Shown piece after piece: positions 15,750-58,389 of a stretch of DNA of 64,000 nt (position 1 is the first letter of the stretch; every line of letters begins with the position of its first letter). Origin of the DNA: Candidatus Colwellbacteria bacterium (GTDB lineage: Bacteria; Patescibacteriota; Minisyncoccia; UBA6257; Colwellbacteraceae); contig JAQTUL010000002.1 of assembly GCA_028710275.1 (NCBI GenBank), positions 12,855-76,854 on the forward strand, written 5' to 3'. A program made the position numbers and the translations under genes. The notes beneath the pieces were generated by a model, which ran no database searches, was not told the DNA's origin, and saw nothing but the letters and a program-made list of their open reading frames with translations.

Positions 15750-15808
15750 ATTGTTGAGCTAGATAAACAGGTTAAATAGTTGATGGTATAATTATCTAGC
15801 TCAACAAT
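15750..15808. promoter_or_regulatory. long hairpin ATTGTTGAGCTAGATAA-n25-TTATCTAGCTCAACAAT ending on the ATG of 15807
   Basis: Perfect 17 bp arms. Lies in the divergent region after the conserved 130 bp element. Confidence 0.4.
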
Positions 15809-18242
15809 GGACAAAATCTTAAGCATTAGAAACAGAGGTGAGAAGATTAGAGGATTGTATATTGGAAAAAATAAGGGACAGCCTCGAATTATTAAATTCG
15901 GATATTCTGATTGTCTTCAAGATCGTATACGTGATAGTGCATATCAAACAGGATTTTTTCACGAATGGGATTTTACTTTTTATATTCCCGATGATCAATC
16001 AAGAGATTCAAGGATCGATGAACAAACTATACTCAAGTATATTAAAGACGAATTAAAGTTGACGTCAGGATATGGAGTTGAAACTTTTCAATATTTCAAA
16101 CCCCTTTTATACAGCAATATTGTAAAAAGTATTTCTAATAAATTAAACCGAGATTGTGGAGTACATACTAAGATAAAAGAATCTGAAGCGAATTTTAAAG
16201 GGTATAAAGTGGTTGATTATAAAAATATGAGATGGGAGGGACCTTTCGATACAGATATCGGTATGAAATGTGGAATGTGTGAAAAGAATAATATAACGAA
16301 AAAATTTTTTATATTGACACATCCTGATCGTAAAGATATTCTAATGAATGTGGGTAAAGACTGTTTAAAAAAATTAAAAGAAACATATAAAATTAAACAT
16401 AACAATAAAAGGGTTCAATTAGACATAGACTTTTTTGGAGACGATATTCCTATAGATAGTACTAATAACGATCAAACAATAACAAATACCACTATACTAG
16501 ATACGTATATGGATGAATTTGTATACAAGACCCCTAGTATCAATTACTGTAAAAATATTATATCAACCCCGGATACATCAAATTATACGTCAGTTAGATA
16601 CGCGATGTCGGTTCTCTTATTTGATAGGTTTATCAAAAAATGTAGTAAAGGAAATGATCGAGTTAGTATTTCTGTTATTGTAAAGGAATTAAACGATGAA
16701 TGTAAAACATCTATATTTGACGAATATTTAATCAAATCACTAGCAACTGGTATTTTCGCTATTGAAGAAAATACCTTGGTGGGATCGTACTTTAATAACA
16801 TGTATCTTGCCACTATTACCTTTTTGGACACAGCATTAAATAACAATGTTAAATTATCTTACAATCCACAAACCGATGATAAAGATAAACTTAACAAAAA
16901 GCAGTTCAACGCGATTGACAACTTTCGTAACAATAAATTATTGTTTTTAACCGGTAGAGGTGGTACAGGAAAAACAAAAGTATCGACTAATATAATTAAA
17001 TCTATAAATTCGGATAAAAATATGGTTTACATATTAGCTCCATATAACACAATATTACAACGACAAAAAGATGCGTTACATCTTGATGTTTATGATGATA
17101 AGAGTAATATCATATTCAAAACTGTATCAAGTTTTTTGATTGGATTAAAAACTAAAAAAATCAAGATAAATCGCCCTTCTTTGATAGTGATCGATGAATT
17201 TCCTCTTGTTGATATAGTATCGATATATAAGTTGTGTACCGGACTGGAATCCGTAAAACATTTGATAAAGTTTTTATTTTTGGGAGATCCTAATCAGTTG
17301 CCGTCGATAAATTTATCATATTGGTTCGGACAGTATATAGAATATTTTAGAGCTAATAAAATATTTAGTGTTCTGACAGAACAAATGAGAAATAAAGATG
17401 AAACACAAAACATATTTTCCTCTAAATTTTTATCGTTTGATGAAAATTTAAATGCTGTTGTGTCAGGTGTATATGATGAAAAATCATTTAATACATTATG
17501 CTCGGATTCAAAAATAGAACTTGACATGTACAATTCTAATAGAATTATAGAACTTTATATACAAGGGTATCAATATATTACATATACAAATGACATACGT
17601 AAGATGATTAACGAGACTATTCATAAATATATTACAGATGATATGTGTCCCGAATGTACAAAGGAATTTATATGTGACAGTTTAAAATTTTGTAGAATGT
17701 GTGTAGATAAACATAAATATATTGTCACGGAATCTATAATAACCGATGATAGTACAATTCATAAGTCTTCAATTATAAATGGACGCGATATCGTGTATAA
17801 GGATGATAAACTCGTTATTTCAGGTGTTGACATAACACTAACACCTGAAATGTTTACTCATCATCTTAGTTTATCATATTGTTTAACTATTAACAAATCT
17901 CAAGGGTCAGAATATCCAAAAGTATGTTATATTATAAATAGTTATCACTTGTCTAATTCTATACATTATCAGAAAATTTATACAGCAGTAACTCGGCATG
18001 GAAAGACATTAAAAATACTATATTATCAAAACAATAAACTGTTACATAAAAGTTCCAGTATCGGGGAAACTAAACTGTTACATAAAAGTTCCAGTAGAGA
18101 AAAAACTAAAATGCCTAAGGGTACATATGAAGGAAAAACTTATGAATGGGTATATGAAAATTTTCCATATTATGCAACGATGGCCAAACCTCCTGAATGG
18201 ATGAACGATTATATCGATTGGAAGTTAACGAAGATAAATTAA
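15807..18242 (+). CDS. GIY-YIG/T5orf172-like N-domain fused to SF1 (RecD/Pif1-type) helicase
   Basis: N-terminus GLYIGKN..PRIIKFGYSDCLQDRIRD (GIY-YIG-like). Walker A LTGRGGTGKTKV, Walker B LIVIDEFP, motif VI CLTINKSQGSEYPKV. Confidence 0.7.
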   Translation: MDKILSIRNRGEKIRGLYIGKNKGQPRIIKFGYSDCLQDRIRDSAYQTGFFHEWDFTFYIPDDQSRDSRIDEQTILKYIKDELKLTSGYGVETFQYFKPLLYSNIVKSISNKLNRDCGVHTKIKESEANFKGYKVVDYKNMRWEGPFDTDIGMKCGMCEKNNITKKFFILTHPDRKDILMNVGKDCLKKLKETYKIKHNNKRVQLDIDFFGDDIPIDSTNNDQTITNTTILDTYMDEFVYKTPSINYCKNIISTPDTSNYTSVRYAMSVLLFDRFIKKCSKGNDRVSISVIVKELNDECKTSIFDEYLIKSLATGIFAIEENTLVGSYFNNMYLATITFLDTALNNNVKLSYNPQTDDKDKLNKKQFNAIDNFRNNKLLFLTGRGGTGKTKVSTNIIKSINSDKNMVYILAPYNTILQRQKDALHLDVYDDKSNIIFKTVSSFLIGLKTKKIKINRPSLIVIDEFPLVDIVSIYKLCTGLESVKHLIKFLFLGDPNQLPSINLSYWFGQYIEYFRANKIFSVLTEQMRNKDETQNIFSSKFLSFDENLNAVVSGVYDEKSFNTLCSDSKIELDMYNSNRIIELYIQGYQYITYTNDIRKMINETIHKYITDDMCPECTKEFICDSLKFCRMCVDKHKYIVTESIITDDSTIHKSSIINGRDIVYKDDKLVISGVDITLTPEMFTHHLSLSYCLTINKSQGSEYPKVCYIINSYHLSNSIHYQKIYTAVTRHGKTLKILYYQNNKLLHKSSSIGETKLLHKSSSREKTKMPKGTYEGKTYEWVYENFPYYATMAKPPEWMNDYIDWKLTKIN

Positions 18243-30326: not shown

Positions 30327-31805
30327 ATGGCAGCGACATCTTCAACCGCCTCTTTTCCCTACTTCTCATGCATTCTCGCGAGAGATTCTGTTGATGGTGG
30401 TATCGGTTACAAGAACGCTCTTCCGTGGAAACTTAAAGATGATATGAATCATTTTAAAATGATTACAACGTTCAATACTGAGAAGAAGGAGAATGTTGTT
30501 ATTATGGGTAGACTTACATGGGAGGGAATGGGTGGAAAACCGTTGTCGAACAGAATCAATATCGTAGTCTCTAAGACACTAGAGAATGTTGAGGGTGTGA
30601 CATTGGCCTCCTCTCTAGATGATGCACTACAGAAGGCTCTAACTTTCGGTAAGGGGAGATACATCTTTGTGATCGGTGGAGCAGCTCTCTATCGAGAAGC
30701 GTTCAATCATCCACAAATGGAGACTGTATATGAGACAAGGGTTATGTATTCTGGAGCCAAGTATGACGCATTCTTTAATACATATGTCCCTCTGGATTTC
30801 GAACCTATTTCTTTTCGAGAAGTGAAGGGAGAGAACTTCAACCTTCAATTTATTCAACACAATAAGAGACGAGAGAGTTCTGAGTACGCGTACCTCTCGC
30901 TTGTGAAGGAGATTCTTGAGACTGGAGAGGAGAGAGGAGATCGCACTGGAACTGGTACTATCTCGGTATTTGGACCTCAAGTGTCCTACGATATTAGAGA
31001 GTTCTTCCCTCTTATCTCAACAAAAACAGTTGGATTGAAAACGATTTTCGAAGAGCTCATCTGGATGTTGAGAGGTCAAACGAATAACAATACCCTAAAG
31101 AGAAAGAAGGTGAACATCTGGACTGAGAATTCAGACTCTCATCACAAGAAGATGGTGAAACGACAGATTGAGAAGAATGGAGTTTCGACCCATGTAGATG
31201 GTGATATGGGCCCGTTGTACGGCTATCAATGGAGAAGTTTCGGTGGCGATTATAAGCCGGTTGTCTATCCAGAGAATGCAACTGAAGACGAGAAGATTGC
31301 GATCGAAGATAAGAGACATATTGGAGAGGGTTTTGATCAGATTGCATGGATCATAAATGAGATTAGAACTAATCCTGAATCAAGACGAATTAAGCTTTCC
31401 GCATGGAATCCTAAAGCGATTGATGATATGGCTCTTCCGCCTTGTCACGATAGTTGCACTTTCTACGTTAGTAGAAAGAAATATCTCCATTGCAAACTCC
31501 ACATGCGAAGTAATGATATCTTTCTCGGTGCTCCATTCAATATCGGACAGTATGCTCTTCTTACCTATATGATTGCATCTATGACTGGTTATGTTCCTGG
31601 TAATCTGATTCACACAATTGATGACGCTCACATCTATTCTAATCATGTTGAACAGATGAAACAGCAACTCCTGAGACCGGTGAGAGATCTTCCCACATTG
31701 AAGGTTCTTCGAGTTCCAGAGAAGATTGAGGAATTTGAGTTCTCGGATTTCAAGTTGTCAGGAAGTAATCCTCACCCATCTATCAAGGGGGATATGGCTG
31801 TTTAA
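30327..31805 (+). CDS. DHFR-TS: bifunctional dihydrofolate reductase-thymidylate synthase
   Basis: The N-terminal DHFR fold has LPWKLKDDMNHF and VIMGRLTWE. The C-terminal TS has PLYGYQWRSFGG, ALPPCHDSCTFYV and DAHIYSNH. 492 aa. ATG verified. Confidence 0.93.
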   Translation: MAATSSTASFPYFSCILARDSVDGGIGYKNALPWKLKDDMNHFKMITTFNTEKKENVVIMGRLTWEGMGGKPLSNRINIVVSKTLENVEGVTLASSLDDALQKALTFGKGRYIFVIGGAALYREAFNHPQMETVYETRVMYSGAKYDAFFNTYVPLDFEPISFREVKGENFNLQFIQHNKRRESSEYAYLSLVKEILETGEERGDRTGTGTISVFGPQVSYDIREFFPLISTKTVGLKTIFEELIWMLRGQTNNNTLKRKKVNIWTENSDSHHKKMVKRQIEKNGVSTHVDGDMGPLYGYQWRSFGGDYKPVVYPENATEDEKIAIEDKRHIGEGFDQIAWIINEIRTNPESRRIKLSAWNPKAIDDMALPPCHDSCTFYVSRKKYLHCKLHMRSNDIFLGAPFNIGQYALLTYMIASMTGYVPGNLIHTIDDAHIYSNHVEQMKQQLLRPVRDLPTLKVLRVPEKIEEFEFSDFKLSGSNPHPSIKGDMAV

Positions 31806-41890: not shown

Positions 41891-41956
41891 AGACATTGAT
41901 CAATGTCTTTTAAAATTGATCCAAAAGAATAGAGATAATACTAGTACATCTTCCAA

Positions 41957-44900
41957 ATGGCTGCTGAGAAATCGATCAGTTCTTTATCAAACTCCTTCAA
42001 GGAGATAAATCTCGAGGGTAACAACGACAGTGTGATACAATCTAAATTTTTAGATCTGGTTTTTAACAAAAAGAGAAATATTTTGTTATCATCCCCTGGT
42101 GGATGTGGTAAATCGTGGCTTATTATTAACATCATAAAAAAGGAAGCTGAACAAAGAGGTCTATCAATATCATTGACGTCAACCACAGGAGTCTCTGCGT
42201 TATCAATTGGTGGAACTACAATTAATAGATGGGGGAGTATCAAATTGGGAAAGGAATCGATTATGACTATTTGTACAAGAATAAAGAATAATAAGGAGAC
42301 ATTAAAAAGATGGAATGAATGTAAAATTTTAGTTATAGATGAAATATCTATGATGGGAGTAAAAACATTTGAATTATTAGATAATGTGGGTCGAAATATA
42401 TGTGAATCAAATTTACCTTTCGGTGGCAAACAATTAATATTATCAGGTGATTTTTTACAACTACCTCCCATCGGAGATTCCTTTATTTTTAAATCTGAGA
42501 TATGGGATACTTTTAATTTCAGATTTTTCAGATTAACGACCCCGAAGCGATATCCTGATATCGATCATTTTAATATGCTCATGAATATGAGATTGGGAAA
42601 TACTTCTAAAGATGATACTAAAAAAATGTATGGTAGAGTTGACGCATATATCGATTATATTCGTAAAGGATTAGAAAAGAAGGAAAAAATTAAACCAACA
42701 AGAATTTATTCCCTTAAAAAAGATGTTGAAACATTTAACCTAGACGAACTCTCTAAATTGGAAGGTAAAACTATCGTCTATAATTCTATTGACAAGTTCT
42801 CCAAAAAATTATCTGAAAAGGAAAAATTAATCGACAAGAATGAGCGAAAAAAGGATAATATATCAGGAAAGGATGTTATGGACTGTACAGAATTTTTAGA
42901 TACAGTTGTGAATAGGCAGATACTTTTAAAACCGGGAGCACAAATAATGTTGACATATAATTTAGCCATAGATATTGGGTTAGTTAATGGGTCTAGAGGT
43001 GTAGTATTATCTTGTGATCAAGACAGTATCAATGTATTATTTAAAAATGGAATCACAACCAGAATAGGGTATAATAAATACGAATTTGACGATGGTAAGA
43101 TTCTCATGGTAAGATATCAACTTCCAATAATTCTGGCGTGGGCAACGTCGATACATAAATGTGTCGATGAAAATACATTAATAAGCACAGAGAATGGGTT
43201 GATAAGAATCAAAGATATATCAACTCATATGATGGGGAAAAATACAAATATGATTCATCCTGATAATTCTATATTACATATATCAGAAAAAATATACGGT
43301 CGCAATGGAATTAATAAAACATCTGAAATATATAAAGGGTGTGTGGAAAAATCTTTAAAAATAACAACCAAATTAGGATATAGTATTGAGGGGTCACATA
43401 AACATCCTATATTAGTTTACGATAATGGAAAAGAGGTATGGAAAACTCTTCCATTTATCAACAAGGGAGATTATATTGTATTCCGAACAGGATTGTTCTG
43501 TGGTCGAAAAGATAATATTACAACTGATATGTTTACTATTGAGCAATATAGAGAAGGAAGTAAAAAGATATACTCTATTCCTCAAACAATAGATGAAGAT
43601 ATATGTTATGTTATCGGATTATTAGTAGGGGACGGAACATATTGTTATTCTACAAACGGAGATTATAAAATAGGATATGTAACATTAGATAACGAACTAA
43701 TCAATAAATTTAAATCTGTTATGGATACCAAATTCAAAACCGATGTTAGAATTTTCGAAGATAATGGCGCCCAACGCTGTATTGTAAGTTCCAAAATGAT
43801 TAGAAACTTTTTTGAGATATTCGGTCTTTCGTATACGAAAAGAACCGAGAAAACGGTTCCATGGTGTATTCTTGAGAATACAGTGGAATGCCAAAGAAAA
43901 TTCATAAAGGGATTATTCGATACGGACGGGGGTATAAATAATTCGTGTATACATTTTACAAATACGTCAGAAAAAGTTATTGATATTACTCAAATTCTTC
44001 TACTCAACAATGGTATTATATCTTCTAAAAGAGTTCTCAGAGAAGCAACCGATAAATGGAGTAAAGTATTTAGAATTCAGATATGTGGAATAAATGCTCG
44101 AAAATATATGTCTACAATTGGATTTTTCTGTTTACGTAAACAGAAACAAGGTATAAAACAGTACGGTAAAGACCCATCGATACAATTGATCCCAAAAACT
44201 AATATATGCAGTATTCCCGATTCTTATACTATTACGAAAACTATTAAAGATCAGCTTACAACATCAAAAAGAAATGATTCATCATTTCATAGTTTCATCT
44301 ATAAACGTGTAGGAAGAGGTGATCTCAATTCGACTATATGTTACGATCAGTTACCATATTTAATTCAAGAGTGTAAAAATAGAAATATTAAATTAGACCC
44401 TAAAATCCAAGAGTGGGTAAATAATGGAATATTTTTTGATAGAGTCGATTCAATTGAAGAAGGTTTGTGTCAGATGTATGATATCGCAGTTCCGGAAGAT
44501 CATACATTTATAGCGAACGGGATTGTAAATCATAACTGTCAAGGAGCGACCCTTGATTATGCTATCATGGATCTTGGATCATCTATCTTCGCTCCGGGAA
44601 TGGCGTATGTCGCCCTTTCTCGTGTCAGAACTCTTGATGGTCTACTATTGAGTAGCTTTGTCCCAAAGAAGATCATCGCGGATCCAGAGGCTCTAGAATT
44701 TGAGAGAATGATTGAAGCTCAAGAAAAGGATGAGGATATCGATTACGAGATCGAGAAAGGAGGTGGAATGCCTCAAGAGGAGGGGCGCCCGAATAAACAA
44801 GTGAAACAACAAGAGATTACTGTTCTTCGAGGAACAATGTGTGGTGAGACCATGATGGTTGATAAGATTCCAGGAGTAGACAAACACATTGTCGCATTCA

Positions 44901-45112
44901 TTATGGCAGATTGTCCAGAGATCTACGAGATTATGGATCCTGATATGTGGAAGAAACTCAAGGGATTAGAAGCACCATTGAAAGTTGATAATGAGACACT
45001 GTATAGTAAGCTCTTAGAACTTCTGGAGTTGGAGAGCGGAGAAACTGGAGACGAAGATGATAACGAACCTGGTGGATTGATAGACTGTGAGGAGGATGTG
45101 TTAGAGTTGTAG
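41957..45112 (+). CDS. PIF1-like SF1 DNA helicase interrupted by an intein
   Basis: Walker A SSPGGCGKSW, LVIDEISMMG, LILSGDFLQLPPI. The motif ATSIHK is split from CQGATLDYAIMDLG...MAYVALSRVRTLDGLLL by a 459 aa Hint+LAGLIDADG insert. Confidence 0.88.
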   Translation: MAAEKSISSLSNSFKEINLEGNNDSVIQSKFLDLVFNKKRNILLSSPGGCGKSWLIINIIKKEAEQRGLSISLTSTTGVSALSIGGTTINRWGSIKLGKESIMTICTRIKNNKETLKRWNECKILVIDEISMMGVKTFELLDNVGRNICESNLPFGGKQLILSGDFLQLPPIGDSFIFKSEIWDTFNFRFFRLTTPKRYPDIDHFNMLMNMRLGNTSKDDTKKMYGRVDAYIDYIRKGLEKKEKIKPTRIYSLKKDVETFNLDELSKLEGKTIVYNSIDKFSKKLSEKEKLIDKNERKKDNISGKDVMDCTEFLDTVVNRQILLKPGAQIMLTYNLAIDIGLVNGSRGVVLSCDQDSINVLFKNGITTRIGYNKYEFDDGKILMVRYQLPIILAWATSIHKCVDENTLISTENGLIRIKDISTHMMGKNTNMIHPDNSILHISEKIYGRNGINKTSEIYKGCVEKSLKITTKLGYSIEGSHKHPILVYDNGKEVWKTLPFINKGDYIVFRTGLFCGRKDNITTDMFTIEQYREGSKKIYSIPQTIDEDICYVIGLLVGDGTYCYSTNGDYKIGYVTLDNELINKFKSVMDTKFKTDVRIFEDNGAQRCIVSSKMIRNFFEIFGLSYTKRTEKTVPWCILENTVECQRKFIKGLFDTDGGINNSCIHFTNTSEKVIDITQILLLNNGIISSKRVLREATDKWSKVFRIQICGINARKYMSTIGFFCLRKQKQGIKQYGKDPSIQLIPKTNICSIPDSYTITKTIKDQLTTSKRNDSSFHSFIYKRVGRGDLNSTICYDQLPYLIQECKNRNIKLDPKIQEWVNNGIFFDRVDSIEEGLCQMYDIAVPEDHTFIANGIVNHNCQGATLDYAIMDLGSSIFAPGMAYVALSRVRTLDGLLLSSFVPKKIIADPEALEFERMIEAQEKDEDIDYEIEKGGGMPQEEGRPNKQVKQQEITVLRGTMCGETMMVDKIPGVDKHIVAFIMADCPEIYEIMDPDMWKKLKGLEAPLKVDNETLYSKLLELLELESGETGDEDDNEPGGLIDCEEDVLEL
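43160..44536 (+). mobile_element. intein with LAGLIDADG homing endonuclease domain, inserted in PIF1 helicase motif (IHK|C...HN|CQG)
   Basis: Starts with Cys (CVDENTLI) at codon 402 and ends with IVNHN followed by a +1 Cys. Two LAGLIDADG blocks (VIGLLVGDGTY and IKGLFDTDGGIN). Removing it restores the ATSIHK-CQGATLD helicase motif. Confidence 0.8.
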
Positions 45113-45153: not shown

Positions 45154-45250
45154 TAATCTTCCGAGATTCTCCGGATAGTGACTAAAAAGTGAATTTCTGA
45201 CTAACTAAGAAGAGACAATCACCCACCACCTAATCACAACACACTCAATC

Positions 45251-45742
45251 ATGTCGTCCACCTCTGCTTACACCGCTCTCGGCCAGTACCTCATCGGAAA
45301 GGAGAAGTCCGATCGAGAGAACACAAAGCTCAAGGACGCAGCGGTTTGTGGTTCTATCGTGAACTTCAAGAGTCTCGTTTCTCGTGGATACAATCCCTAT
45401 CGTCCAGACAATGATGGAAAGATGCCGTTCGAGTGGGCTGAGGATCAGGAGAAGTTCAAAGAGCTGTCAGCTGAGTGGATTCATCAGCTCGCGTTCGATA
45501 TGAATCCCGACACCTTCTCGGACGATTCTGACGACGAGGATCGGAAGAAGACTCTCGAGAAGGTGGTTCAGTATGTTGTGCAGGTTGACGGTCACGAACT
45601 TGCTATGCTTCGGGAACATCTCAGTTCCATGCGCAACAACGATGAGGAAGATGAAGATGAGAAGACACCTAGAAGGTATGTTCAATCTACGGATGATCCT
45701 ATGTGCGATCACAATTATCTTTCCAACTCTAGAGGAGATTGA
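45251..45742 (+). CDS. hypothetical acidic protein
   Basis: 163 aa. ATG verified. Confidence 0.45.
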   Translation: MSSTSAYTALGQYLIGKEKSDRENTKLKDAAVCGSIVNFKSLVSRGYNPYRPDNDGKMPFEWAEDQEKFKELSAEWIHQLAFDMNPDTFSDDSDDEDRKKTLEKVVQYVVQVDGHELAMLREHLSSMRNNDEEDEDEKTPRRYVQSTDDPMCDHNYLSNSRGD

Positions 45743-45780
45743 TGTAACTTAGACTATGCATGGATACTACAAGGAGTAAC

Positions 45781-46140
45781 TCATCCGCAAACACTCGAGT
45801 CGGGAATAGGAGAATACATTAGAAAAGAGGCAATAAATCCTGCTATCACTGCTGTTGCCGGTGATAACAAGACCTGTTTAGTTGTTATGTTCGGAATATT
45901 ATCTCCGATAACCAAGACCATTACTAAAACACTAAATGTCACAGCCATCGGAACAGACATTCTGAGTGCATTTAGATAATTTGGTTTCTTTGTCTGATCT
46001 TGACATCTAGAGATTAAGGCGAGAAAGCATGATAAAAATCCTAGAATAACTGCAACAGGAAGTGATCCTGATACACCATATTTTCCGTGAATATACCAGA
46101 CGAGAAGCGGAAGGAAAAATAGAATAGTCTCTCTTATCAT
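45781..46140 (-). CDS. small multi-pass membrane protein
   Basis: 119 aa. ATG verified. Four hydrophobic helices. Confidence 0.45.
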   Translation of the reverse strand: MIRETILFFLPLLVWYIHGKYGVSGSLPVAVILGFLSCFLALISRCQDQTKKPNYLNALRMSVPMAVTFSVLVMVLVIGDNIPNITTKQVLLSPATAVIAGFIASFLMYSPIPDSSVCG

Positions 46141-46236: not shown

Positions 46237-47694
46237 CTAGACCACATCAAATCCAAAGTACTTATTTACTATTGTACTGAACGTCGTGTTGAATTCATCT
46301 ACCGTCATATGGATAGGAACATATTGTTTACTGAATTTTTGGCTCCACTTTTTCACCTCTTCAACTACATAGGTTTTGGTATCTTCTTCCCACGGATCGC
46401 CTGATAATCCGTTCATAATTTTTTCTTGCATTTCTTCAGATGTTTCATCAACCACATTTTGTAAACTTGTTTTAAGAGAGATTGTAAATTCATGTTTCAT
46501 ATCAATGTATACAAGACCATCCTCAATCCCTGTAAAAACATTGAACAACCTATTGTAGTGACCGGAGAAGCAAGTACCAGACATCTCTGTCAACTCTTCA
46601 ATAAGTCTCATCCACAAGAGATTATATTCCTTGTGATTGGAGATAATAAAGACTACACGATCAAAGACATCCTTAAGAACATATTCCCCCACTGTTTCAG
46701 TCATGATTTTAACGTTATCAGTTGAAAATCTCTGCACGCTCAATTCAACTGCATTCTTATTGATCTTTACAACTTTTTGGTGTTCGTCAAAATACGATCC
46801 AGTCTGAATAGCGGATGATATTTTGTTTTTCATATCCGTGTAATTTCTCATCTTCTGATCTGATCTCTCAAAATCAGTCGAACTCTTTATCATCCACAAA
46901 AGAAATTTTGTCTTGCAGCTATCGAGTTGATGAACCGATTGAGAGTTATGATTTAATTCACCAACAACTCTCAATAACCTAATATTGTTTTCACCCCATC
47001 GATTGAACTCTCTAAACTGCTCAGTCTGAGGAAGAGTGTACAGGAAAAAATCAGCAAGATCGTTGGTTAATTTTTCATCACCTACAACCAACCCTTGTGA
47101 TATTCTACACATTTCAGGAGTGATCCAATTGTTAAGAGTATACATCTGTAGTACTGGGATCAGAAAATTGGTGACATTCAATTGGTTCTGAAAGAAGTAT
47201 GAATCCAGACCGTCTTTCAATAGTGGTTTTGATGGTGTGTGTTTAGAGATATCATGAACGCGAGACAGACCGGCTATATATTTTCTTGTTGGACGATGTA
47301 GCATTTGAACACTATTGTATATGTTATATCCTCTAGCGATAGTGTTTTTCGATACTAACTCTTCATATAATCTCTTTCCGATATTAGTGTATTCCTCTGA
47401 CATTCTAGCCATAAAGAAATTAAACCATACTTCATACTTGATCTCGTTGTTCACAGTATCGCTCAAGTTAAACCCGATCATCTCTTCCAATATAGTTTCA
47501 CCTATAGTAGTTGTGTCCAGGTATTCACAGCACTTAATACGTTGATCAAAATGAAGTGTTTTATCCTTTGCATAGGTTTCTATTTTTGAGAGAAAACTCT
47601 CCCTTGTTGTTCCGTAAGGGGTTACATGTTGATTACAGTTAACCATAAATTCGTAAGTGCTGCATAAGTCGTCTACCATCTCTACTAATATCAT
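46237..47694 (-). CDS. hypothetical protein
   Basis: 485 aa. ATG verified (MILVEMVDD). Confidence 0.55.
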   Translation of the reverse strand: MILVEMVDDLCSTYEFMVNCNQHVTPYGTTRESFLSKIETYAKDKTLHFDQRIKCCEYLDTTTIGETILEEMIGFNLSDTVNNEIKYEVWFNFFMARMSEEYTNIGKRLYEELVSKNTIARGYNIYNSVQMLHRPTRKYIAGLSRVHDISKHTPSKPLLKDGLDSYFFQNQLNVTNFLIPVLQMYTLNNWITPEMCRISQGLVVGDEKLTNDLADFFLYTLPQTEQFREFNRWGENNIRLLRVVGELNHNSQSVHQLDSCKTKFLLWMIKSSTDFERSDQKMRNYTDMKNKISSAIQTGSYFDEHQKVVKINKNAVELSVQRFSTDNVKIMTETVGEYVLKDVFDRVVFIISNHKEYNLLWMRLIEELTEMSGTCFSGHYNRLFNVFTGIEDGLVYIDMKHEFTISLKTSLQNVVDETSEEMQEKIMNGLSGDPWEEDTKTYVVEEVKKWSQKFSKQYVPIHMTVDEFNTTFSTIVNKYFGFDVV

Positions 47695-47770
47695 TGTAGT
47701 CTCTTAAATTAATTTATAATCGGTACTTTGAAAAGTGAAAAAGTTGATACAGCGCAAATGGTAAGAAACC

Positions 47771-48361
47771 ATGTCGAAAACTGAGGTAGAAATAATATTT
47801 GAGGATCACATCTTTGTTGCAGTTATCGGAACTGCTGGTGGAAAGAAGGATCCTATGAACGAGAAGCTTGATGAGGATCTCTTTCGGAAGATGGTAATCT
47901 CCGCAGACAAAACTATTATGAATGAGTTCGGATTGGATTCTCGAGGTGTTATTCTTGTTAGTGGAGGTGCAGCGTGGAGTGATCATGTAGCTGTAGAGTT
48001 GTACAAGACTGGACGATATGGTGGGCTACAGATTCATTTTCCGTGTGAATGGGAGGGAGGAAAACACAATGATACCGGAGAATATGATTGGAGAACCAAT
48101 CCGGGGAGATTGGCAAACAGTCTCCATGACGCATTCTCGAAAAAGATTGGTCGAGATAGTCAATCCGATTTCTCTCTTCTCTCAGAAGATGAGAATGTAC
48201 AGTTCGTCACTGGAAAGGGATTTCATACTCGAAATTCTAAAGTCGCTAAATCAGAATACATGATAGCTTTCACATTCGGAAGTATCAAGGGTGGAACCTC
48301 GGATACGTGGGGAAAATGTAAAGGAAGTCGCCATCATATAGATATCGATTCTTTGACTTAA
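47771..48361 (+). CDS. possible SLOG-superfamily (DprA/Smf/LOG-like Rossmann) protein
   Basis: AVIGTAGG...ILVSGGAAWSDHVAVELY...GKGFHTRNSKVAKSEYMIAFTFGSIKGGTSDTW follows the glycine-rich pattern of the SLOG fold. Weak, and not verified by search. Confidence 0.35.
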   Translation: MSKTEVEIIFEDHIFVAVIGTAGGKKDPMNEKLDEDLFRKMVISADKTIMNEFGLDSRGVILVSGGAAWSDHVAVELYKTGRYGGLQIHFPCEWEGGKHNDTGEYDWRTNPGRLANSLHDAFSKKIGRDSQSDFSLLSEDENVQFVTGKGFHTRNSKVAKSEYMIAFTFGSIKGGTSDTWGKCKGSRHHIDIDSLT

Positions 48362-48433
48362 TGTCGAAAAAATGATTATTTCATATTGTATCACGGAGAG
48401 ATTACTCCGTGATACAAATACCACTTCAAAACC

Positions 48434-49507
48434 ATGGCTCTCACAACCGCATCTATCAAGAGTAGCATCGTTGAGCTCAGCAAACTTCTCGCTGGGAAGA
48501 GTTTCTCGGTCTCTGAGATTCAGGAGAAATGGAACTCTCTGGTCGGAGAGAAACTGAAGATCAAGCAAATAGAGATCGAAATCGAGAGTGACGATGAGAC
48601 TGAAGAACAAAAACAACCACTTACGACAATCCCAATTACTGCGAAACCAACTTCCGTAATCAAGACGTGTTTCGCTGCGGGAGATAAAGTCAAGATGATC
48701 TTCAAGAAGGGATACTATGCTGCTGTGATTGGTAAGTTGAATCTCAAACACTACACCGTGTGGACATGCAAGAATTCTCTTTCACCGACCGCTGTGATCT
48801 ACAAGTATACCTGTCCGATCAATCTTCTGAGATACACATCTGAGGAGGAGGGTATGAGTGAACCTTGGAATTTCCATCATCGCCTGACTGGAGAACACAT
48901 TCCCGGGAGAAAGACTCATGCGGTCGTAAAGACTGGATATTCCGTGTCGGTACCCAAGTGTCTCTCGATGAGTAGCGGAATTGCTTATACGAGCACTATG
49001 TTTCGCGACGGAAAGAATATCGGAACTATTCAGAATGGAGGAACAGGAGGTCCAACGTATGTCAATCTGTATGGTGAAGAGAAGACCCTGTGGACTAGTT
49101 GGTTGAAAGCGAAGGGACACACCGAAGAGGATGGTCTTGAGAAGTTGATCTCTACTGCTGAGAATGGAGAAGTAAAAAAGACTGAGGAACCGTCTAAGAT
49201 CGGGTACGATTCGATTGGAAATCTACATGACTATGTCAAGAAGTGGGTGAAGGAGAGATACGCACGTGGATACACCACCGTCTCTGCAAAGAACAGCAAC
49301 GAGATTCTTGTGGAGTTGGAGGATCTGCGGCACGGAGATCATAAAAAGATGGTTCTAAAGGCGTCAGGTCCGGTTGGAGATCTGGTGAAGAGGATTCAAC
49401 AGGCCCTTCCTCGAGTGTACGGAAGAACTCCGGGATTGACTGATGATTTCGACTACACACATCCGATCATCATCAAGGGTGATATGAATCAGAACATCGA
49501 TGTGTAA
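48434..49507 (+). CDS. hypothetical protein
   Basis: 357 aa. ATG verified. Confidence 0.5.
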   Translation: MALTTASIKSSIVELSKLLAGKSFSVSEIQEKWNSLVGEKLKIKQIEIEIESDDETEEQKQPLTTIPITAKPTSVIKTCFAAGDKVKMIFKKGYYAAVIGKLNLKHYTVWTCKNSLSPTAVIYKYTCPINLLRYTSEEEGMSEPWNFHHRLTGEHIPGRKTHAVVKTGYSVSVPKCLSMSSGIAYTSTMFRDGKNIGTIQNGGTGGPTYVNLYGEEKTLWTSWLKAKGHTEEDGLEKLISTAENGEVKKTEEPSKIGYDSIGNLHDYVKKWVKERYARGYTTVSAKNSNEILVELEDLRHGDHKKMVLKASGPVGDLVKRIQQALPRVYGRTPGLTDDFDYTHPIIIKGDMNQNIDV

Positions 49508-53418: not shown

Positions 53419-56400
53419 ATGTCGATCGAATTTGAAAACGATTCTGAAGATGATATCGAATTGGATGTTGCAGTTACCGGTGCAAGAGTAGGAGATGTGA
53501 TTATCGGTCAGCAGAAGTGTACGATGAAAGCGATGCTTCGTGTGTATACATCTCCTATTTTCCCGATGAAGAAGTATCTGGATGAATTACGAGATGATGA
53601 TGAAAAGTGGGAGAGATTTCTCGCGAAGCTCTCGTCACTCTCATTCTTCGCAAACATGACTCGGGATGAGCGTGAAGAGTGGATGGATGAGAATGAGACA
53701 ACTGTAGAGTTTATTGGGGACGACCGTGAGGGAGGCGAGAAGAGTGGAAAAAGAAAAGAAACGCATATCGAGATTCTGGATGTAGGAACTTCGACATTGA
53801 CCTCTCAAGTGGAGTCAGAGGATCTGGAGGTACTCATGGAGGGTAAGGAAGAGGGATTCTATTCGGTTGAGGAGATTGAATCTCGATTCCCGAGAAAGCC
53901 GGGAAGTAATGCGCGAAAACATACTCTCTTCTTTATGAAACAGTTTTGGGTTGTGGTGACAGATTACAAGATCGTTACGTCGTTCGATGGAGTTGTATTC
54001 GATATCGAAAATGGAGAGATCAAGTCGAACTGTGAAACAGAGGATGGAAAGGAGTTGATTGTTATTGACGGAATCACAAAGCAGTACACGTTCGGAAAGA
54101 AAGATGAATGGGTGAAAAAGTCAGAACAAAAACTCGCGTTTCTCGTTTCGAAAGAGAGATTCGATCTCTCAAAGATAGATGAGATTGTAAAGGAGACATA
54201 TAAGGAGTTGTCAGACGTCGATGGCGATATGAATGATACGATCCGGAAAATTAGAACAGACTTGAGAGAATACACAGCCGGGTCGTTCAAATCTCTTATG
54301 CAGAAGATCATTCGATTCGGTCCGGATAAGGTATCACTTCTGGATGGAGAGATTGTGGATGGAGGAATAGTCATTCTCGTTGTTGTTGCGATGCTCGCAC
54401 AGAATCCAGGATCATTCGTTCCTGATATTCAGAGATATGTTACAGGACTTGAGTCTGTAGCAAAACGATTGGGGATCATCTGTGGATTCGAAGACTCGTA
54501 TACACCTCCGGAACGAGTGAATGAATTGGTGTCGTTGTTCTCTGGCGCACTTCTTGCTCAGAGAGTAAGATCATGGAAACCGAATAGACAAACTCTAAAA
54601 CTCTGGATGACAACTGCGTATAAATCGCTCAATGAGCGGAGAGCTATCGATTACGAGAAGGAGTCATCTAATCTCTCAATTACAGACTGGTGGACTCTAT
54701 GTCATAAGAAGGGATTGGATATGAAACCGTACGCTATCTCGGAGAAGTTGAGTCCGATAAAAACGTGTAGCGCGATTCTAGATACTCTTAGGTCGTTCGA
54801 GGGAGATATTGGAATGGCTCGACATATTGCATCAGTTTATCCGAAGTGTGAACTTATAGAATGTGATAGAACACATGAGGTTGTGATGCCTCTGTGTCAC
54901 GGAACAGATCAACATTGGGCTGCAGGGTTCATCTACTTCTTCACTCCGAAAACTATTCTTCAGAATAAAGGAGAATCCTCACCGTTCGATAAGATATTCA
55001 CTCGTGTGTTTCAGGAGGTGACCGGATTCAATCCTCGAAGAGATGAGATTGGAGAAGACTTTGAAGATGATGAATTTGTGAAGGAGACGCGGAGATCGCA
55101 GATGTTGTATCTAGTAGCAAAACAGAACAAACAGACAAAGAGAAAAATCCTCAAACGAGAACATTACAAGAGTAGCTATCAGTTGAACGATTCATGGTTG
55201 GCTGGAATGGTTAGTGCTATAGAGATTCCAGGAAGTCCGGCAACTATTGTGACTCTTCGTCCAGAGAATATCTATCAGCTTATCGCAATCAGAAAGCCGT
55301 CTCGTAATATGGCAGAGAACATCACTCCCGAAAGAGAGGAGTACTCGAAGAAGACTGCAAAGGAGATGTTGAAGAATGGAATAAAACTAAAGGGAACACA
55401 TCCTCCATCGGAATTTTTTAAAGGTGCATCAGTCAAACTAGTTGATGATGAGTATATTATCATTTCAGCAGATGGTATTTCGATGACATGGGAGGATGCA
55501 AGAGATATCGATATCTCTCTTCCATATCACAATGCTGTAGATAAGAATATAGAGAATTCTATTTCTCAGTGGGGAGAAGGTATTGAGATCAATGCGTTTG
55601 AGAAACTTGATAAGCTCATTGCAAAAACCAACACAAAGGTAATGTACCGTGTCCTTTCGTATATCGCAAACTATAAGAAGGAGTTTGAGATGAATAGAGT
55701 TAGTCGAGATGGAAACGGAACTTATCAGAGTGTCAGTCTTAATGATGTTCGTGCTTATCAGTTCATTCTCACTCTGAGTCAACTCTTTCCTGCAGCATTA
55801 CGACCGGTTGAAAAATCGCCTCAGAAATTCCTAGTTCCAGTTGGACCATTACTGTGGAACATTGTTACAAAGATCAAGGGATTCTTGTGTAAGCCGGAGG
55901 ACGATGATGGATGGGATGAAGTAGAGATTAAGGATTCCTTAGAGAGAGTTGAGTGGACTCATCAGAAGGAGACTACAGAGGAGATGATCAGGAACTTCAA
56001 GTCGGGAACGAAAGGAAACTTCTTATGGCTGCGCGTCGGGCTTGGGAAGTGCCTCCACCCAGATACTAAAGTTTTGTTATGGGATGGGTCCATGAAACGC
56101 GCGGAAGATGTACAAGTGGGTGACAGACTTATAGGGGACGACAATACGTATAGAAATGTACTGACTACATGTACCGGTGAAGAGGAAATGTTTGAAATTT
56201 CACAAATCAAAGGTGATTCTTATAAAGTAAACAGATCTCATATTCTGTCTCTGAAGTTTTCAGGACATAAAGGATATTATTGGAGTGAGTCTTATCATAG
56301 ATATTCTGTCACTTGGTTGGATAAAGAGGAGGTGAAACGAAAAACTAAAATCTTTACGGTTAGCCAGGTATATAAAACGAAAGAGATTGCTTATGATACA

Positions 56401-58389
56401 ATGATGCAATTTCGATCTACAATTCCAGACGATGATATTATCGATATCTCTGTAAACGATTATCTCTCTCTTCCTCAAAATTTTAAGAATGAATTGAAAG
56501 GTTTTAAGGTAGGGGTTGATTTCCCTTCACAAATTGTTTTTATGGATCCTTATTTATTGGGAGTATGGCTTGGTGATGGATACTCAAATGGATCCGGATT
56601 TACTAACATAGATGAAGATTGTATTAATTCTTTCGTGAAAGAAATAGAATCTATGGGGTGTCATATCTATAGAAAAAAATCAAAGGGAGAAGATACAATT
56701 TCCTATGCTGTACGAGGTATTTATGAAAATAAAAAGAGAAAGAGAAACCATTTTCTGGATATTATAAGATACTATGGAATGTATAAAAATAAACATATCC
56801 CTAAGGACTTTTTAATTAATGATAGAGAAATTAGATTGCAGGTTTTGGCTGGATTGATAGATACTGATGGATATTATAACGATGGATGTTATGAGATAAT
56901 ACAAAAAAGAAAAGAGTTATCGGATAACATTTTGTACTTGGTTAGATCATTAGGATTTAACGCTACACAAAAAGAGGTTCAAAAAACATGTACAAATTCT
57001 ATACATGGAAGAATAACAGGTACTTATCATAGGTGTATATTCAGTGGAGAAGGAATAGATCTTATTCCTTGTAAAATTGAAAGGAAAAGAGCACCTGAAA
57101 GAATGCAGGTGAAAGATGCATTGAGTACAGGAGTTACAGTTAAGAGTATAGGGAATGGTAAATATTGTGGATTTACTATCGACGGAAATAGTAGATTTCT
57201 TCTTGGAGATTTCACGGTGACTCATAATACCTTAATCGTAATGAACTTTCTCTCGTGGTTGAAAAGTATGAAAAAACTCTCAAAGTATATTCTCTACACA
57301 CTCCCACCGTCCGCGATTGAGAGTGTTGTACATGAGATTCAGGCGTTTGGATTAGAGATCAACTATATCATTCCGCTGAAGAGTATCAAAGGTAAGAAGA
57401 TTCCGAAAGGAGTAACGGTTACTCAGGAATGTGTTCTCGTTCCGTATGCGGTGAATATCATTGCACACGACCATTTGCGGCGATGTAGCGACGAACTTCT
57501 CAGTTATGCAAGCGAGTGTACATTCCTGGTCGATGAGGTTCATAAGGGATTGAATGAGACAAAGAGAACTAGTACCCTTCTCGATATTGCTCGTCTTTCA
57601 AGAATATTTGTAGCCTTTACAGGAACACCAGTGATCGACAACAAGATCTATAAACTCATCTGGTGGTTGGAACAGATTGTTGAGTTTGAGGTCAATCTCG
57701 GAAACTTCTGGGTGAGTGCAAATTCGATGGTTGCGAGAAAGATCTCGACAGGCGTGAGAGTGATTCGAAAGGAGGTGGTAGCTAAATTCAAGGATGATGA
57801 ACTTTCCGAATACAAAAAACTTGTTCCAGTTGCAATGGGAGGAGAGAATAAGTATGCGTCGAATACAGACTTCAACGATGCGTACAAACTCTGTTGTAAC
57901 GTGACAGCGAGTAGACGAATGATTGAGGAGACAATGGCGGCGTTGGGTGAAGATAAAGGAGTCATGTTGGTCGCGCAGAATAGATCTCATCAAGATCGTT
58001 TGAAAGATATGCTTGTTGATGAGGGAGTGAAGGAGAAGGATATCTTTATCTTGACTGGAAACAATAGTATATTCTTGACGGATGAGGCTGTGAAGAAGAA
58101 GATCATTCACGATTACAAAGTTGTTATCGTTCCGATGAACAAACCTGAAGGATACACATTGACAAGACTAACAGTTATGGTAACGTGTGTCTATCCGTCT
58201 AACGAAGCAACTCGTGAACAGATCGAGGGTCGTATCAATCGTATTAGTCAGGCTGCGGAAGAGATTGAAATTATCGTGGTACACTGCGGAATTCTCACTT
58301 ATATTCTAAAGAATCATAATCAAGCAAAGAGTCTGAGTATCGCGTTGAGTGATATGGCAAAGAAACTGGAGGGTGTGAAGATTGCGTAG
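53419..58389 (+). CDS. D6/D11-like (SNF2/DExH) SF2 helicase interrupted by an intein
   Basis: The 1656 aa ORF has a Walker A split as RVGLGK|[intein]|TLIVMNF. Downstream are FLVDEVHKGLN (DExH) and QIEGRINRISQ (motif VI). The host protein is about 1263 aa without the insert. Confidence 0.75.
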   Translation: MSIEFENDSEDDIELDVAVTGARVGDVIIGQQKCTMKAMLRVYTSPIFPMKKYLDELRDDDEKWERFLAKLSSLSFFANMTRDEREEWMDENETTVEFIGDDREGGEKSGKRKETHIEILDVGTSTLTSQVESEDLEVLMEGKEEGFYSVEEIESRFPRKPGSNARKHTLFFMKQFWVVVTDYKIVTSFDGVVFDIENGEIKSNCETEDGKELIVIDGITKQYTFGKKDEWVKKSEQKLAFLVSKERFDLSKIDEIVKETYKELSDVDGDMNDTIRKIRTDLREYTAGSFKSLMQKIIRFGPDKVSLLDGEIVDGGIVILVVVAMLAQNPGSFVPDIQRYVTGLESVAKRLGIICGFEDSYTPPERVNELVSLFSGALLAQRVRSWKPNRQTLKLWMTTAYKSLNERRAIDYEKESSNLSITDWWTLCHKKGLDMKPYAISEKLSPIKTCSAILDTLRSFEGDIGMARHIASVYPKCELIECDRTHEVVMPLCHGTDQHWAAGFIYFFTPKTILQNKGESSPFDKIFTRVFQEVTGFNPRRDEIGEDFEDDEFVKETRRSQMLYLVAKQNKQTKRKILKREHYKSSYQLNDSWLAGMVSAIEIPGSPATIVTLRPENIYQLIAIRKPSRNMAENITPEREEYSKKTAKEMLKNGIKLKGTHPPSEFFKGASVKLVDDEYIIISADGISMTWEDARDIDISLPYHNAVDKNIENSISQWGEGIEINAFEKLDKLIAKTNTKVMYRVLSYIANYKKEFEMNRVSRDGNGTYQSVSLNDVRAYQFILTLSQLFPAALRPVEKSPQKFLVPVGPLLWNIVTKIKGFLCKPEDDDGWDEVEIKDSLERVEWTHQKETTEEMIRNFKSGTKGNFLWLRVGLGKCLHPDTKVLLWDGSMKRAEDVQVGDRLIGDDNTYRNVLTTCTGEEEMFEISQIKGDSYKVNRSHILSLKFSGHKGYYWSESYHRYSVTWLDKEEVKRKTKIFTVSQVYKTKEIAYDTMMQFRSTIPDDDIIDISVNDYLSLPQNFKNELKGFKVGVDFPSQIVFMDPYLLGVWLGDGYSNGSGFTNIDEDCINSFVKEIESMGCHIYRKKSKGEDTISYAVRGIYENKKRKRNHFLDIIRYYGMYKNKHIPKDFLINDREIRLQVLAGLIDTDGYYNDGCYEIIQKRKELSDNILYLVRSLGFNATQKEVQKTCTNSIHGRITGTYHRCIFSGEGIDLIPCKIERKRAPERMQVKDALSTGVTVKSIGNGKYCGFTIDGNSRFLLGDFTVTHNTLIVMNFLSWLKSMKKLSKYILYTLPPSAIESVVHEIQAFGLEINYIIPLKSIKGKKIPKGVTVTQECVLVPYAVNIIAHDHLRRCSDELLSYASECTFLVDEVHKGLNETKRTSTLLDIARLSRIFVAFTGTPVIDNKIYKLIWWLEQIVEFEVNLGNFWVSANSMVARKISTGVRVIRKEVVAKFKDDELSEYKKLVPVAMGGENKYASNTDFNDAYKLCCNVTASRRMIEETMAALGEDKGVMLVAQNRSHQDRLKDMLVDEGVKEKDIFILTGNNSIFLTDEAVKKKIIHDYKVVIVPMNKPEGYTLTRLTVMVTCVYPSNEATREQIEGRINRISQAAEEIEIIVVHCGILTYILKNHNQAKSLSIALSDMAKKLEGVKIA
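56050..57228 (+). mobile_element. intein with LAGLIDADG homing endonuclease domain inserted in helicase P-loop (GLGK|C...HN|T)
   Basis: Begins with CLHPDTKVLLWDG (Hint block A) and ends with FTVTHN followed by a +1 Thr. LAGLIDADG blocks LLGVWLGDGYSNG and LAGLIDTDGYYNDG. 393 aa. Confidence 0.8.

Follow-up and report, generated by a model that had tools for sequence, protein, structure and literature searches.

Is the long insert in a helicase gene of the window, as the whole 64,000-nucleotide stretch analysed here is called, a protein-splicing element, and is its insertion site new, as a first-pass annotation had supposed? The gene is a forward-strand open reading frame at 41957..45112, encoding 1051 aa plus stop, and all of its features given below lie on the same strand. 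Its earlier description as a PIF1-type helicase is borne out by the ORF list and by Pfam, since the precursor matches PIF1 (2e-28, above the 25.9-bit cut-off), AAA_19 and Pif1_2B_dom (1e-7), the last corresponding to the 2B SH3-like domain. The N-extein (41957..43159; aa 1-401), which also holds the 2B/SH3 domain, contains Walker A (SSPGGCGKS, 42089-42115), Walker B (LVIDEISM, 42329-42352) and LLDNVGRNICESNLPFGGKQLILSGDFLQLPP (42374-42469), which aligns with the Pif1 signature region, and it ends with the first half of motif V (LAWATSIHK, 43133-43159). Within the precursor, DNVGRNICESNLPFGGKQLILSGDFLQLPP aligns to human PIF1, and we take this stretch to be the named Pif1 signature motif. The C-extein (44537..45112; aa 861-1051), whose first residue is the +1 Cys, opens with the second half of motif V (CQGATLD, 44537-44557), followed by motif VI (AYVALSRVR, 44603-44629) and a C-terminal extension (about 44813-45034) that is common only to the nearest orthologues. 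Walker A/B, the SF1 motifs and the signature region before GDFxQLPP are all present, as expected of the PIF1 family (SF1B). Moreover, an AlphaFold2 model of the precursor (mean pLDDT 82.5) matched human PIF1 6HPT in Foldseek with E = 4e-27 and a TM score of 0.72. Judged by these matches, the host protein is a PIF1-family (SF1B) DNA helicase with predicted 5'->3' unwinding.

The insert occupies 43160..44536 (aa 402-860). With Cys-402 at nt 43160 and Asn-860 ending at nt 44536, it comprises 459 aa, which form a Hint domain that encloses a LAGLIDADG homing endonuclease of the double-motif type, and its splice junctions read WATSIHK|CVDENTLIS upstream and FIANGIVNHN|CQGATLD downstream. On the precursor, Pfam detects Intein_splicing (5e-12) and LAGLIDADG_3 (7e-15). 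The curated NCBIfam end models both score above their cut-offs: intein_Nterm (TIGR01445) covers aa 402-487 with 33.3 bits versus a cut-off of 24.5, its model position 1 falling on aa 402, and intein_Cterm (TIGR01443) covers aa 841-861 with 32.6 bits versus 15.6. The N-terminal splicing region (43160..43417; TIGR01445) consists of block A CVDENTLISTENG (43160-43198), with the Cys1 nucleophile (Cys402), and block B GYSIEGSHKHPILV (43376-43417), which features S-x-x-H. The C-terminal splicing region (44468..44536; TIGR01443) comprises block F CQMYDIAVPEDHTFIANG (44468-44521), with its Asp/His, and block G IVNHN (44522-44536), with the penultimate His and terminal Asn, so that the intein C-terminus, QMYDIAVPEDHTFIANGIVNHN|C, displays blocks F/G, both terminal residues and the +1 Cys. 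Among 41 PIF1-hosted relatives, the block B His and the block F Asp are kept in all (41/41). The canonical residue at the first position of the block B motif is Thr; the window intein has Ser instead, which is the norm of its family (38/41 relatives). The Hint fold is indicated by Pfam Intein_splicing as well as by Foldseek matches of the AlphaFold2 model to 7QSS, 1DQ3, 2CW7 and 1VDE, and the intein portion aligns end to end with nine allelic inteins. Hence, junctions, profiles and fold all uphold the previously proposed Hint and LAGLIDADG insert, which begins at Cys-402, ends in His-Asn and is followed by a +1 Cys, and blocks A, B, F and G were all found on profile alignment. By these features the insert is a canonical class-1 intein, with predicted splicing. 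That blocks and +1 nucleophile are present, and that both termini match curated intein end models, argues against a non-splicing insert, be it a domain or loop specific to the lineage or an auto-cleaving domain of Hint type (BIL/Hedgehog-like), that stays in or merely cleaves the helicase. Such an insert is highly improbable and nothing specific speaks for it, although an unrelated 147-aa insert elsewhere in the helicase of homologue P0067 shows that lineage-specific inserts occur in the family.

The position of the intein within the helicase is most readily seen after its removal in silico. Excision joins WATSIHK to CQGATLD, the human PIF1 counterpart in motif V being SIHKSQGMTLD, and no gap interrupts the alignment of the spliced 592-aa extein to human PIF1 structures across the junction (E = 1e-54), where 'lawatsihkcqgatld' of the extein faces 'LAWAMSIHKSQGMTLD' of human PIF1. 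The predicted ligated junction is SIHK-CQGATLDYAIMDLGSSIFAPGMAYVALSR and the reconstructed empty site TCGATACATAAA|TGTCAAGGAGCGACCCTTGAT. [quoted passage not shown] The insertion point thus lies between the Lys that touches ssDNA and the Gly that touches the gamma-phosphate. Because the insert parts the His-Lys of the ssDNA channel from this Gly, the helicase should have no activity before splicing, which should thus be obligatory. By the same token, the enzyme would be expected to lose its activity if the 459 aa stayed in place, since they part motif V neighbours on which ssDNA binding and ATP hydrolysis depend; this further weakens the case for a non-splicing insert.

Intein-free alleles corroborate the boundaries. 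A syntenic locus, L004, lacks exactly nt 43160-44536, its orthologue being 66% identical and its flanks colinear on both sides, and homologues devoid of exactly this segment likewise tell against a permanent domain or loop. Alignment of the junctions to human PIF1 and L004 therefore revealed a precise motif interruption rather than a lineage-specific loop. The earlier proposal that the insert splits ATSIHK(S)QG.TLD exactly holds for the HK|SQG interruption, which is precise, but the 'S' is not invariant in this viral clade: among 107 intein-free homologues, the position is occupied by S in 55, C in 15, A in 9, T in 7, L in 7, I in 5 and V in 4, besides others. Since Cys occurs in 15/107 of these, the HKCQG Cys of the intein-free orthologue P0002, considered as a possible 'scar' of intein loss, is indistinguishable from ordinary variation.

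An assembly chimera or pseudogene, in which intein DNA was mis-assembled onto a helicase gene, has next to no probability. The window does derive from metagenome or SRA-type data, and its sole exact match is one Logan contig, SRR22315508_508560, which encodes the same 1051-aa protein, is 100% identical in DNA to the window over 13,227 nt and possibly stems from the same reads. On the contrary side, the 3.15-kb frame is unbroken, both junctions coincide exactly with codon boundaries within one motif, homologous inteins occupy the same position in independent samples, and the synteny at L004 is colinear on either flank. On account of frame, junctions, intein blocks and L004 synteny, the chimera, the lineage-specific loop and the BIL/Hedgehog-type domain were rejected outright. 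We are thus highly confident that the locus carries a canonical class-1 LAGLIDADG intein in motif V of a giant-virus PIF1 (SF1B) helicase, belonging to an old allelic family; no evidence contradicting the intein call was encountered, and its weak points concern activity.

Protein splicing and homing of the window intein are inferred from sequence and would proceed as follows. An N-S acyl shift at Cys402 would yield a thioester, which would be attacked by Cys861 (trans-thioesterification); cyclisation of Asn860 would then free the intein, and an S-N shift would give rise to a mature helicase of 592 aa reading ...SIHK-CQGATLD.... During co-infection, the freed intein would cut intein-free PIF1 alleles around CATAAR|TGYCAAGGAGCGACC, as its intact motifs suggest, whereupon the cut allele would acquire a copy of the intein through repair.

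The endonuclease portion is compatible with such a cycle. Its core (43601..43936), delineated by Pfam LAGLIDADG_3 and alignment, comprises two LAGLIDADG motifs, ICYVIGLLVGDGTY (43601-43642; GLLVGDG) and KFIKGLFDTDGGI (43898-43936; GLFDTDG), in both of which the acidic residue is kept. With both motifs intact, homing endonuclease activity of the released intein is probable. Both Asp residues are also kept in 31/41 PIF1-hosted relatives; in P0022 and P0035 the LAGLIDADG Asp is lost and the intein shortened to 311-312 aa. Between the core and block F lies an extra, mostly helical segment of ~97 aa (44138..44428), with helices at residues 756-766, 775-786, 796-808 and 815-822 of the AlphaFold2 model, which is gapped in the alignment of the shorter relatives P0022, P0035, P0107, P0122 and P0121 and may constitute an accessory DNA-binding region.

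Whether the intein is still mobile is less certain than its identity. It is possible, though on balance unlikely, that it is competent for splicing but immobile ('fixed'), with an endonuclease that cuts nothing, and is kept since imprecise loss from an essential motif is impossible. Over 39 hosts, the more an intein has diverged, the more its extein tends to have diverged as well (Spearman rho 0.51, p = 9e-4), as a fixed element would lead one to expect; the correlation fits largely vertical inheritance, and the endonuclease could be no longer needed. In addition, close copies are absent: the closest full-length intein is 46% identical to that of the window, and a fragment 57%, so there is no sign of a very recent spread. 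The GC content of the intein (0.306) matches that of the N-extein (0.317) in a window that is itself a GC mosaic (0.29-0.43), hence a compositional mark of recent arrival is absent, and the endonucleases of P0022, P0035 and P0107 have clearly decayed. In the window copy, on the other hand, neither catalytic Asp is lost and the full length of 459 aa is preserved, whereas relatives with broken motifs are already 100-150 aa shorter, which implies that the endonuclease decays fast once selection stops. Moreover, some close orthologues (55-69% identity), including a syntenic one, have no intein; the site is therefore polymorphic in the clade, as the homing cycle predicts.

With regard to the breadth of the family, nine full-length motif-V inteins and one fragment were found at the identical site among the ~120 nearest PIF1 homologues, the full-length ones being 32-47% identical to the window intein. 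A word-indexed search with the intein alone gave 3 matches and missed obvious relatives; the following counts come from an exhaustive search of cluster representatives. Roughly 55 of the best 150 representatives carry HK|C...HN|[C/S]Q[G/S], and their hosts comprise giant-virus PIF1 as well as bacterial and phage RecD-like helicases. In IMG/VR, an alignment-based scan yielded 514 PIF1 relatives, of which 80 were kept; two of these, on viral contigs, bear a motif-V intein, while a scan for close relatives with the full protein gave no match. The JGI record P0107 already bears the name 'intein/homing endonuclease'. A neighbour-joining tree places motif-V inteins and their P-loop relatives in separate clusters, and S-x-x-H is the form of block B in 55/59 of the former, against T-x-x-H in 34/43 of the latter. 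The window intein is, by these sequence relationships, a member of an old, widespread and poorly documented "SF1B motif V" intein family.

The nearest structural counterparts are the archaeal VMA inteins TliVMA/PhoVMA (7QSS/7QSU/7QST) and PI-PfuI (1DQ3), which share the Hint domain split by a double-LAGLIDADG endonuclease, Cys1 and the terminal HN. The closest PDB sequence match is to the archaeal V-ATPase inteins 7QSU/7QSS (E = 2e-12, intein residues 2-310), and among inteins with an endonuclease the precursor model resembles TliVMA 7QSS (TM 0.70) and PI-PfuI 1DQ3 (TM 0.61). These elements nonetheless differ from the window intein in host protein, site and domain of life and show only ~16-22% identity to it; a further difference is that ahead of block F the window intein has an additional helical segment of ~97 aa and that its block B reads S-x-x-H.

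The same motif V site, HK|SQG, is occupied by inteins in bacterial and phage SF1B helicases of the RecD/RecD2-like kind (e.g. TVHK|C...HN|SQGSEW). They are homologous to the window intein (28-38% identity), share its S-x-x-H and, like the PIF1-hosted inteins with which they group, stand apart from those of the P-loop; their hosts are RecD-type and cellular or phage, in contrast to the PIF1-type, giant-virus host of the window. Novikova et al. 2016 give RecD as a bacterial intein host in a main text that states no insertion point (PMC4760082), and database sequences suggest that these published inteins sit at the same site. Natural PIF1 inteins are not described in open-access papers containing both 'intein' and 'Pif1', and neither 'Pif1' nor 'RecD' occurs in the supplementary files of the 2018 catalogue of eukaryotic-virus inteins by Green, Novikova & Belfort, which, in the entries considered, reports only P-loop inteins, in other helicases (PMC5784728). 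These giant-virus helicase inteins (chlorovirus, CeV DEAD-like, VV A18-like and Marseilleviridae D6/D11-like) are likewise endonuclease-bearing and situated in conserved ATPase motifs of Nucleocytoviricota helicases that act in replication or transcription, yet all complete entries examined lie at the Walker A P-loop, GK|T/S, and, unlike the window intein, none of those examined resides in PIF1 or motif V (PMC5784728). The Marseilleviridae group is labelled 'P-loop insertion' in that source, one entry there being an N-terminally truncated remnant. The suggestion that the insertion site may be new thus stands insofar as open-access descriptions of a PIF1 intein are concerned, but homologous same-site inteins are common in public sequences; as the same insert is found at the same site in dozens of viral and bacterial helicases, it is not a new kind of element.

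A more far-reaching reading, which we regard as improbable, is that the intein is more than a parasite, serving as a weapon against the PIF1 of intein-free relatives at co-infection, a role proposed for elements of Bodo saltans virus (PMC5871332), or rendering helicase maturation conditional (e.g. redox-dependent) through Cys1/Cys+1. Equally improbable, and separate from this, is that the motif-V family jumped between RecD-type and PIF1-type helicases by homing on shared HKSQG-coding DNA; if true, this crossing would be an inter-family and inter-domain jump that lacks a formal description.

Within PIF1, motif V is only one of three invaded sites: inteins occur at Walker A GK|S (site a; P0007, P0008, P0125), at motif III GDF|xQLPP (site b; P0033, P0037, P0148) and at motif V (site c), the site of the window intein. 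DnaB (sites a and b) and ribonucleotide reductase are multi-site intein hosts, and the PIF1 family resembles them in being invaded at several conserved motifs; no description of such a pattern for PIF1 was found in the searchable literature. The list of intein-invaded proteins hence gains PIF1 and, in a wider sense, motif V of SF1B helicases, and the invasion of one giant-virus helicase family at three separate catalytic motifs agrees with the known tendency of inteins to settle in those motifs of replication proteins that bind ATP or DNA. The general understanding of inteins or PIF1 helicases is unchanged by this finding. For annotation, the mature helicase should be taken as 592 aa rather than 1051 aa, and nt 43160-44536 should be masked in phylogenies that use this PIF1, while the syntenic intein-free allele provides a ready homing-site substrate on which a new LAGLIDADG specificity could be tested.

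The host genome is that of a giant virus, Nucleocytoviricota-like, as assigned from gene content and GVMAG contig names: the surroundings include a fused DHFR-TS, TRAF/RING and OGFr domains, several helicases and genes with homologues on GVMAG contigs. A second intein is present in another gene of the window (56050-57228); it is of the published giant-virus-helicase type, and the algal-virus inteins examined resemble this VMA1/PI-SceI-type element (Hom_end_hint) in the catalogue entries considered (PMC5784728).

The ORF at 41957-45112 (plus strand, uninterrupted, 1051 aa) encodes the precursor of a giant-virus PIF1 helicase in which a genuine, canonical LAGLIDADG intein splits motif V. In its translation, the 459-aa insert (43160-44536) extends from Cys-402 (nt 43160) to Asn-860 (nt 44534-44536), with the junctions WATSIHK/CVDENTLIS on the N side and FIANGIVNHN/CQGATLD on the C side (slashes mark splice points). 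All coordinates and residues of the first-pass annotation, including the terminal His-Asn and the +1 Cys that opens the C-extein, are correct, and its reading as PIF1 with a Hint/LAGLIDADG insert agrees with Pfam and NCBIfam profiles. The exteins match Pfam PIF1 (2e-28) and Pif1_2B_dom and the insert LAGLIDADG_3 (7e-15) and Intein_splicing (5e-12), while NCBIfam intein_Nterm (aa 402-487) and intein_Cterm (aa 841-861) score above their curated cut-offs and fall exactly at the proposed N terminus and C-terminal end of the intein. Blocks A, B, F and G, whose absence on profile alignment would have spoken against an intein, are all present within a complete canonical set: block A (Cys1), block B (GSHKH, that is S-x-x-H), LAGLIDADG motifs 1 (GLLVGDG) and 2 (GLFDTDG), block F (YDIAVPEDHTF) and block G (IVNHN). 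The AlphaFold2 model of the whole precursor (mean pLDDT 82.5) retrieves two classes of solved structures as top matches, namely PIF1 helicases (human 6HPT, TM 0.72; yeast and Bacteroides enzymes) and endonuclease-containing inteins (TliVMA 7QSS, TM 0.70; PI-PfuI 1DQ3; PI-TkoII 2CW7; PI-SceI). Sequence comparison with solved structures places the intein nearest to 7QSU and 7QSS, two inteins of archaeal V-ATPases (E = 2e-12). Past the helicase core, a C-terminal extension (…IPGVDKHIVAFIMADCPEIYEIMDPDMWKKLKGL…; aa 953-1026, 44813-45034) precedes an acidic tail; it has no Pfam match, is confidently folded in the model (pLDDT ~90) and is kept in the nearest orthologues examined (P0001-P0008, P0010, P0121).

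In silico deletion of the insert yields a 592-aa product that aligns gap-free with human PIF1 across the junction (lawatsihkcqgatld against LAWAMSIHKSQGMTLD), in line with the proposed exact split of the HK(S)QG motif. The equivalent human residues, I554-H555-K556-S557-Q558-G559, belong to motif V of the helicase. The ssDNA channel is lined by H555 and K556, and the substitution K556A causes the largest ssDNA-binding defect with little or no ATPase activity; S557 has R584 of motif VI as its partner, and G559 touches both Mg2+ and the gamma-phosphate of ATP (PMC6451128). Since the intein separates the counterparts of K556 and S557, we infer that the unspliced precursor is non-functional as a helicase, and hence that splicing is obligatory. 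The predicted mature helicase carries Cys where Ser is usual at +1. The conservation of HK(S)QG assumed in the first-pass annotation applies to the rest of the motif but not to this S, the residue that must be the nucleophile: among intein-free homologues of the viral clade, +1 is S in 55, C in 15, A in 9, T in 7, L in 7, I in 5 and V in 4. The residues A, L, I, V or M, found in 27 of 107, could not support splicing upon invasion. The +1 Cys (HKCQG) of 15 of these 107, such as P0002 (10001-11854 of the 50.5-kb JGI contig L004), could be a relic of past occupancy or plain variation.

The closest extein homologues (P0001-P0006 and P0010, 55-69% identity) have no insert at the motif-V site. L004 is colinear with the window from ~36.9 to 52 kb and lacks exactly the intein segment, because the tblastx match of PIF1 breaks at 43162 (window 41954-43162 against L004 9998-11206) and restarts at window 44531 and L004 11198. 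The empty site rebuilt from the window reads CATAAA/TGTCAAGGAGCGACCCTTGAT, and the natural empty allele of L004 reads CATAAGTGCCAAGGAGCGACCCTCGAC. The segment being missing in both L004 and human PIF1, the insert is a precise interruption rather than a lineage-specific loop. L004 also wholly lacks the block 45157-45787, where a 163-aa plus-strand ORF (45251-45742) of unusually high GC (0.49; GC3 0.56) and without Pfam match sits between PIF1 and a conserved 119-aa minus-strand gene; ~39.4-41.9 kb and 46334-49231 likewise have no L004 counterpart.

The window intein belongs to an existing, widespread family spanning SF1B helicases; the type of element is not new, and the insertion site is not unique. 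Out of the ~120 PIF1 homologues that match best, an insert at the identical position, alignable end to end with the window intein, occurs in nine full-length proteins (32-47% identity) and in the fragment P0121 (57%). Used as query against 1.84 billion cluster representatives in an exhaustive HMMER search, the intein had 5314 matches at E <= 1e-3, of which 215 reached E <= 1e-30. Within the best 150, ~55 show the junction HK/C...HN/[C/S]Q[G/S] and 41 have PIF1-like hosts by BLAST to the window extein; the remaining motif-V hosts have RecD-type C-flanks (e.g. SQGSEW, SQGLEYD), the three scanned (P0136, P0139, P0145) bearing the RecD2-type domains AAA_30, SH3_13 and UvrD_C_2. For most other relatives, the insertion site is the Walker A loop of an ATPase (MutS-like, terminase-like or other). 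Motif-V inteins cluster separately from P-loop inteins in an NJ tree built without bootstrapping, with some RecD-hosted ones nested among the PIF1-hosted; block B is S-x-x-H in 55 of 59 motif-V inteins and T-x-x-H in 34 of 43 P-loop relatives. The motif-V intein also occurs on two IMG/VR viral contigs (L006, L007), and the JGI entry P0107 is already annotated 'intein/homing endonuclease'. The PIF1 family has moreover been invaded at Walker A (GK/C...HN/S; P0007, P0008, P0125) and at GDF/C...HN/CQLPP (P0033, P0037, P0148). Inteins at these two sites are VMA-type and unrelated to the motif-V intein; P0125 and P0148 hold two apiece, and L002 2001-4382 is listed with such proteins.

In print, by contrast, host and site are scantly covered. 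Searchable literature naming both 'intein' and 'Pif1' describes no natural PIF1 intein. A 2018 survey of inteins from eukaryotes and their viruses lists as viral helicase hosts a chlorovirus helicase, a CeV DEAD-like helicase, VV A18-like and Marseilleviridae D6/D11-like helicases, the complete viral helicase entries examined there having P-loop inteins, and its supplementary files contain neither 'Pif1' nor 'RecD' (PMC5784728). RecD is named among intein-bearing bacterial helicases in a 2016 prokaryotic survey, whose main text gives no insertion point (PMC4760082). The site, which the first-pass annotation thought possibly new, is therefore poorly documented in print, not rare, being well populated in sequence databases.

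Judged from sequence, the endonuclease may well be active in homing, because the intein keeps both catalytic Asp and full length, while relatives with broken LAGLIDADG motifs (P0022, P0035) are reduced to 311-312 aa, and because the motif-V site is polymorphic among close orthologues. That the intein is instead a fixed element capable of splicing only would fit its closest full-length relative being only 46% identical, the positive correlation between intein and extein identities in a set of 39 hosts (rho 0.51, p = 9e-4) and a base composition equal to that of the N-extein; against the retained Asp pair and the polymorphic site, we consider this doubtful. Unlike the PIF1 intein, a second intein in the window is far more AT-rich than its own exteins (GC 0.334 and GC3 0.257 against 0.42 and 0.44-0.47). 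This 393-aa element (56050-57228, plus strand; Pfam Hom_end_hint 6e-16, Hom_end 9e-7) is of the VMA1/PI-SceI type, resides in a helicase-like ORF of 1656 aa (53419-58389, plus strand), splits its Walker A loop (GLGK/CLHPDTKVLLWDG...LLGDFTVTHN/TLIV) and closely resembles published helicase P-loop inteins of chlorovirus, PgV and CeV.

The gene content of the window, comprising a fused DHFR-thymidylate synthase, TRAF/RING and OGFr-domain proteins and several SF1/SF2 helicases, together with PIF1 homologues, many of them intein-free, on giant-virus MAG (GVMAG) contigs, points to a giant virus (Nucleocytoviricota); no giant-virus hallmark gene was found within the window. A Logan assembly contig from SRR22315508 matches the window at 100% identity over 13.2 kb. 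Two genes serve well as markers for a genome of giant-virus type: the DHFR-thymidylate synthase fusion (30327-31805, plus strand; Pfam 4e-97 and 8e-29) and the gene for a second SF1 helicase, which has no intein (15807-18242, plus strand; AAA_30/UvrD_C_2).
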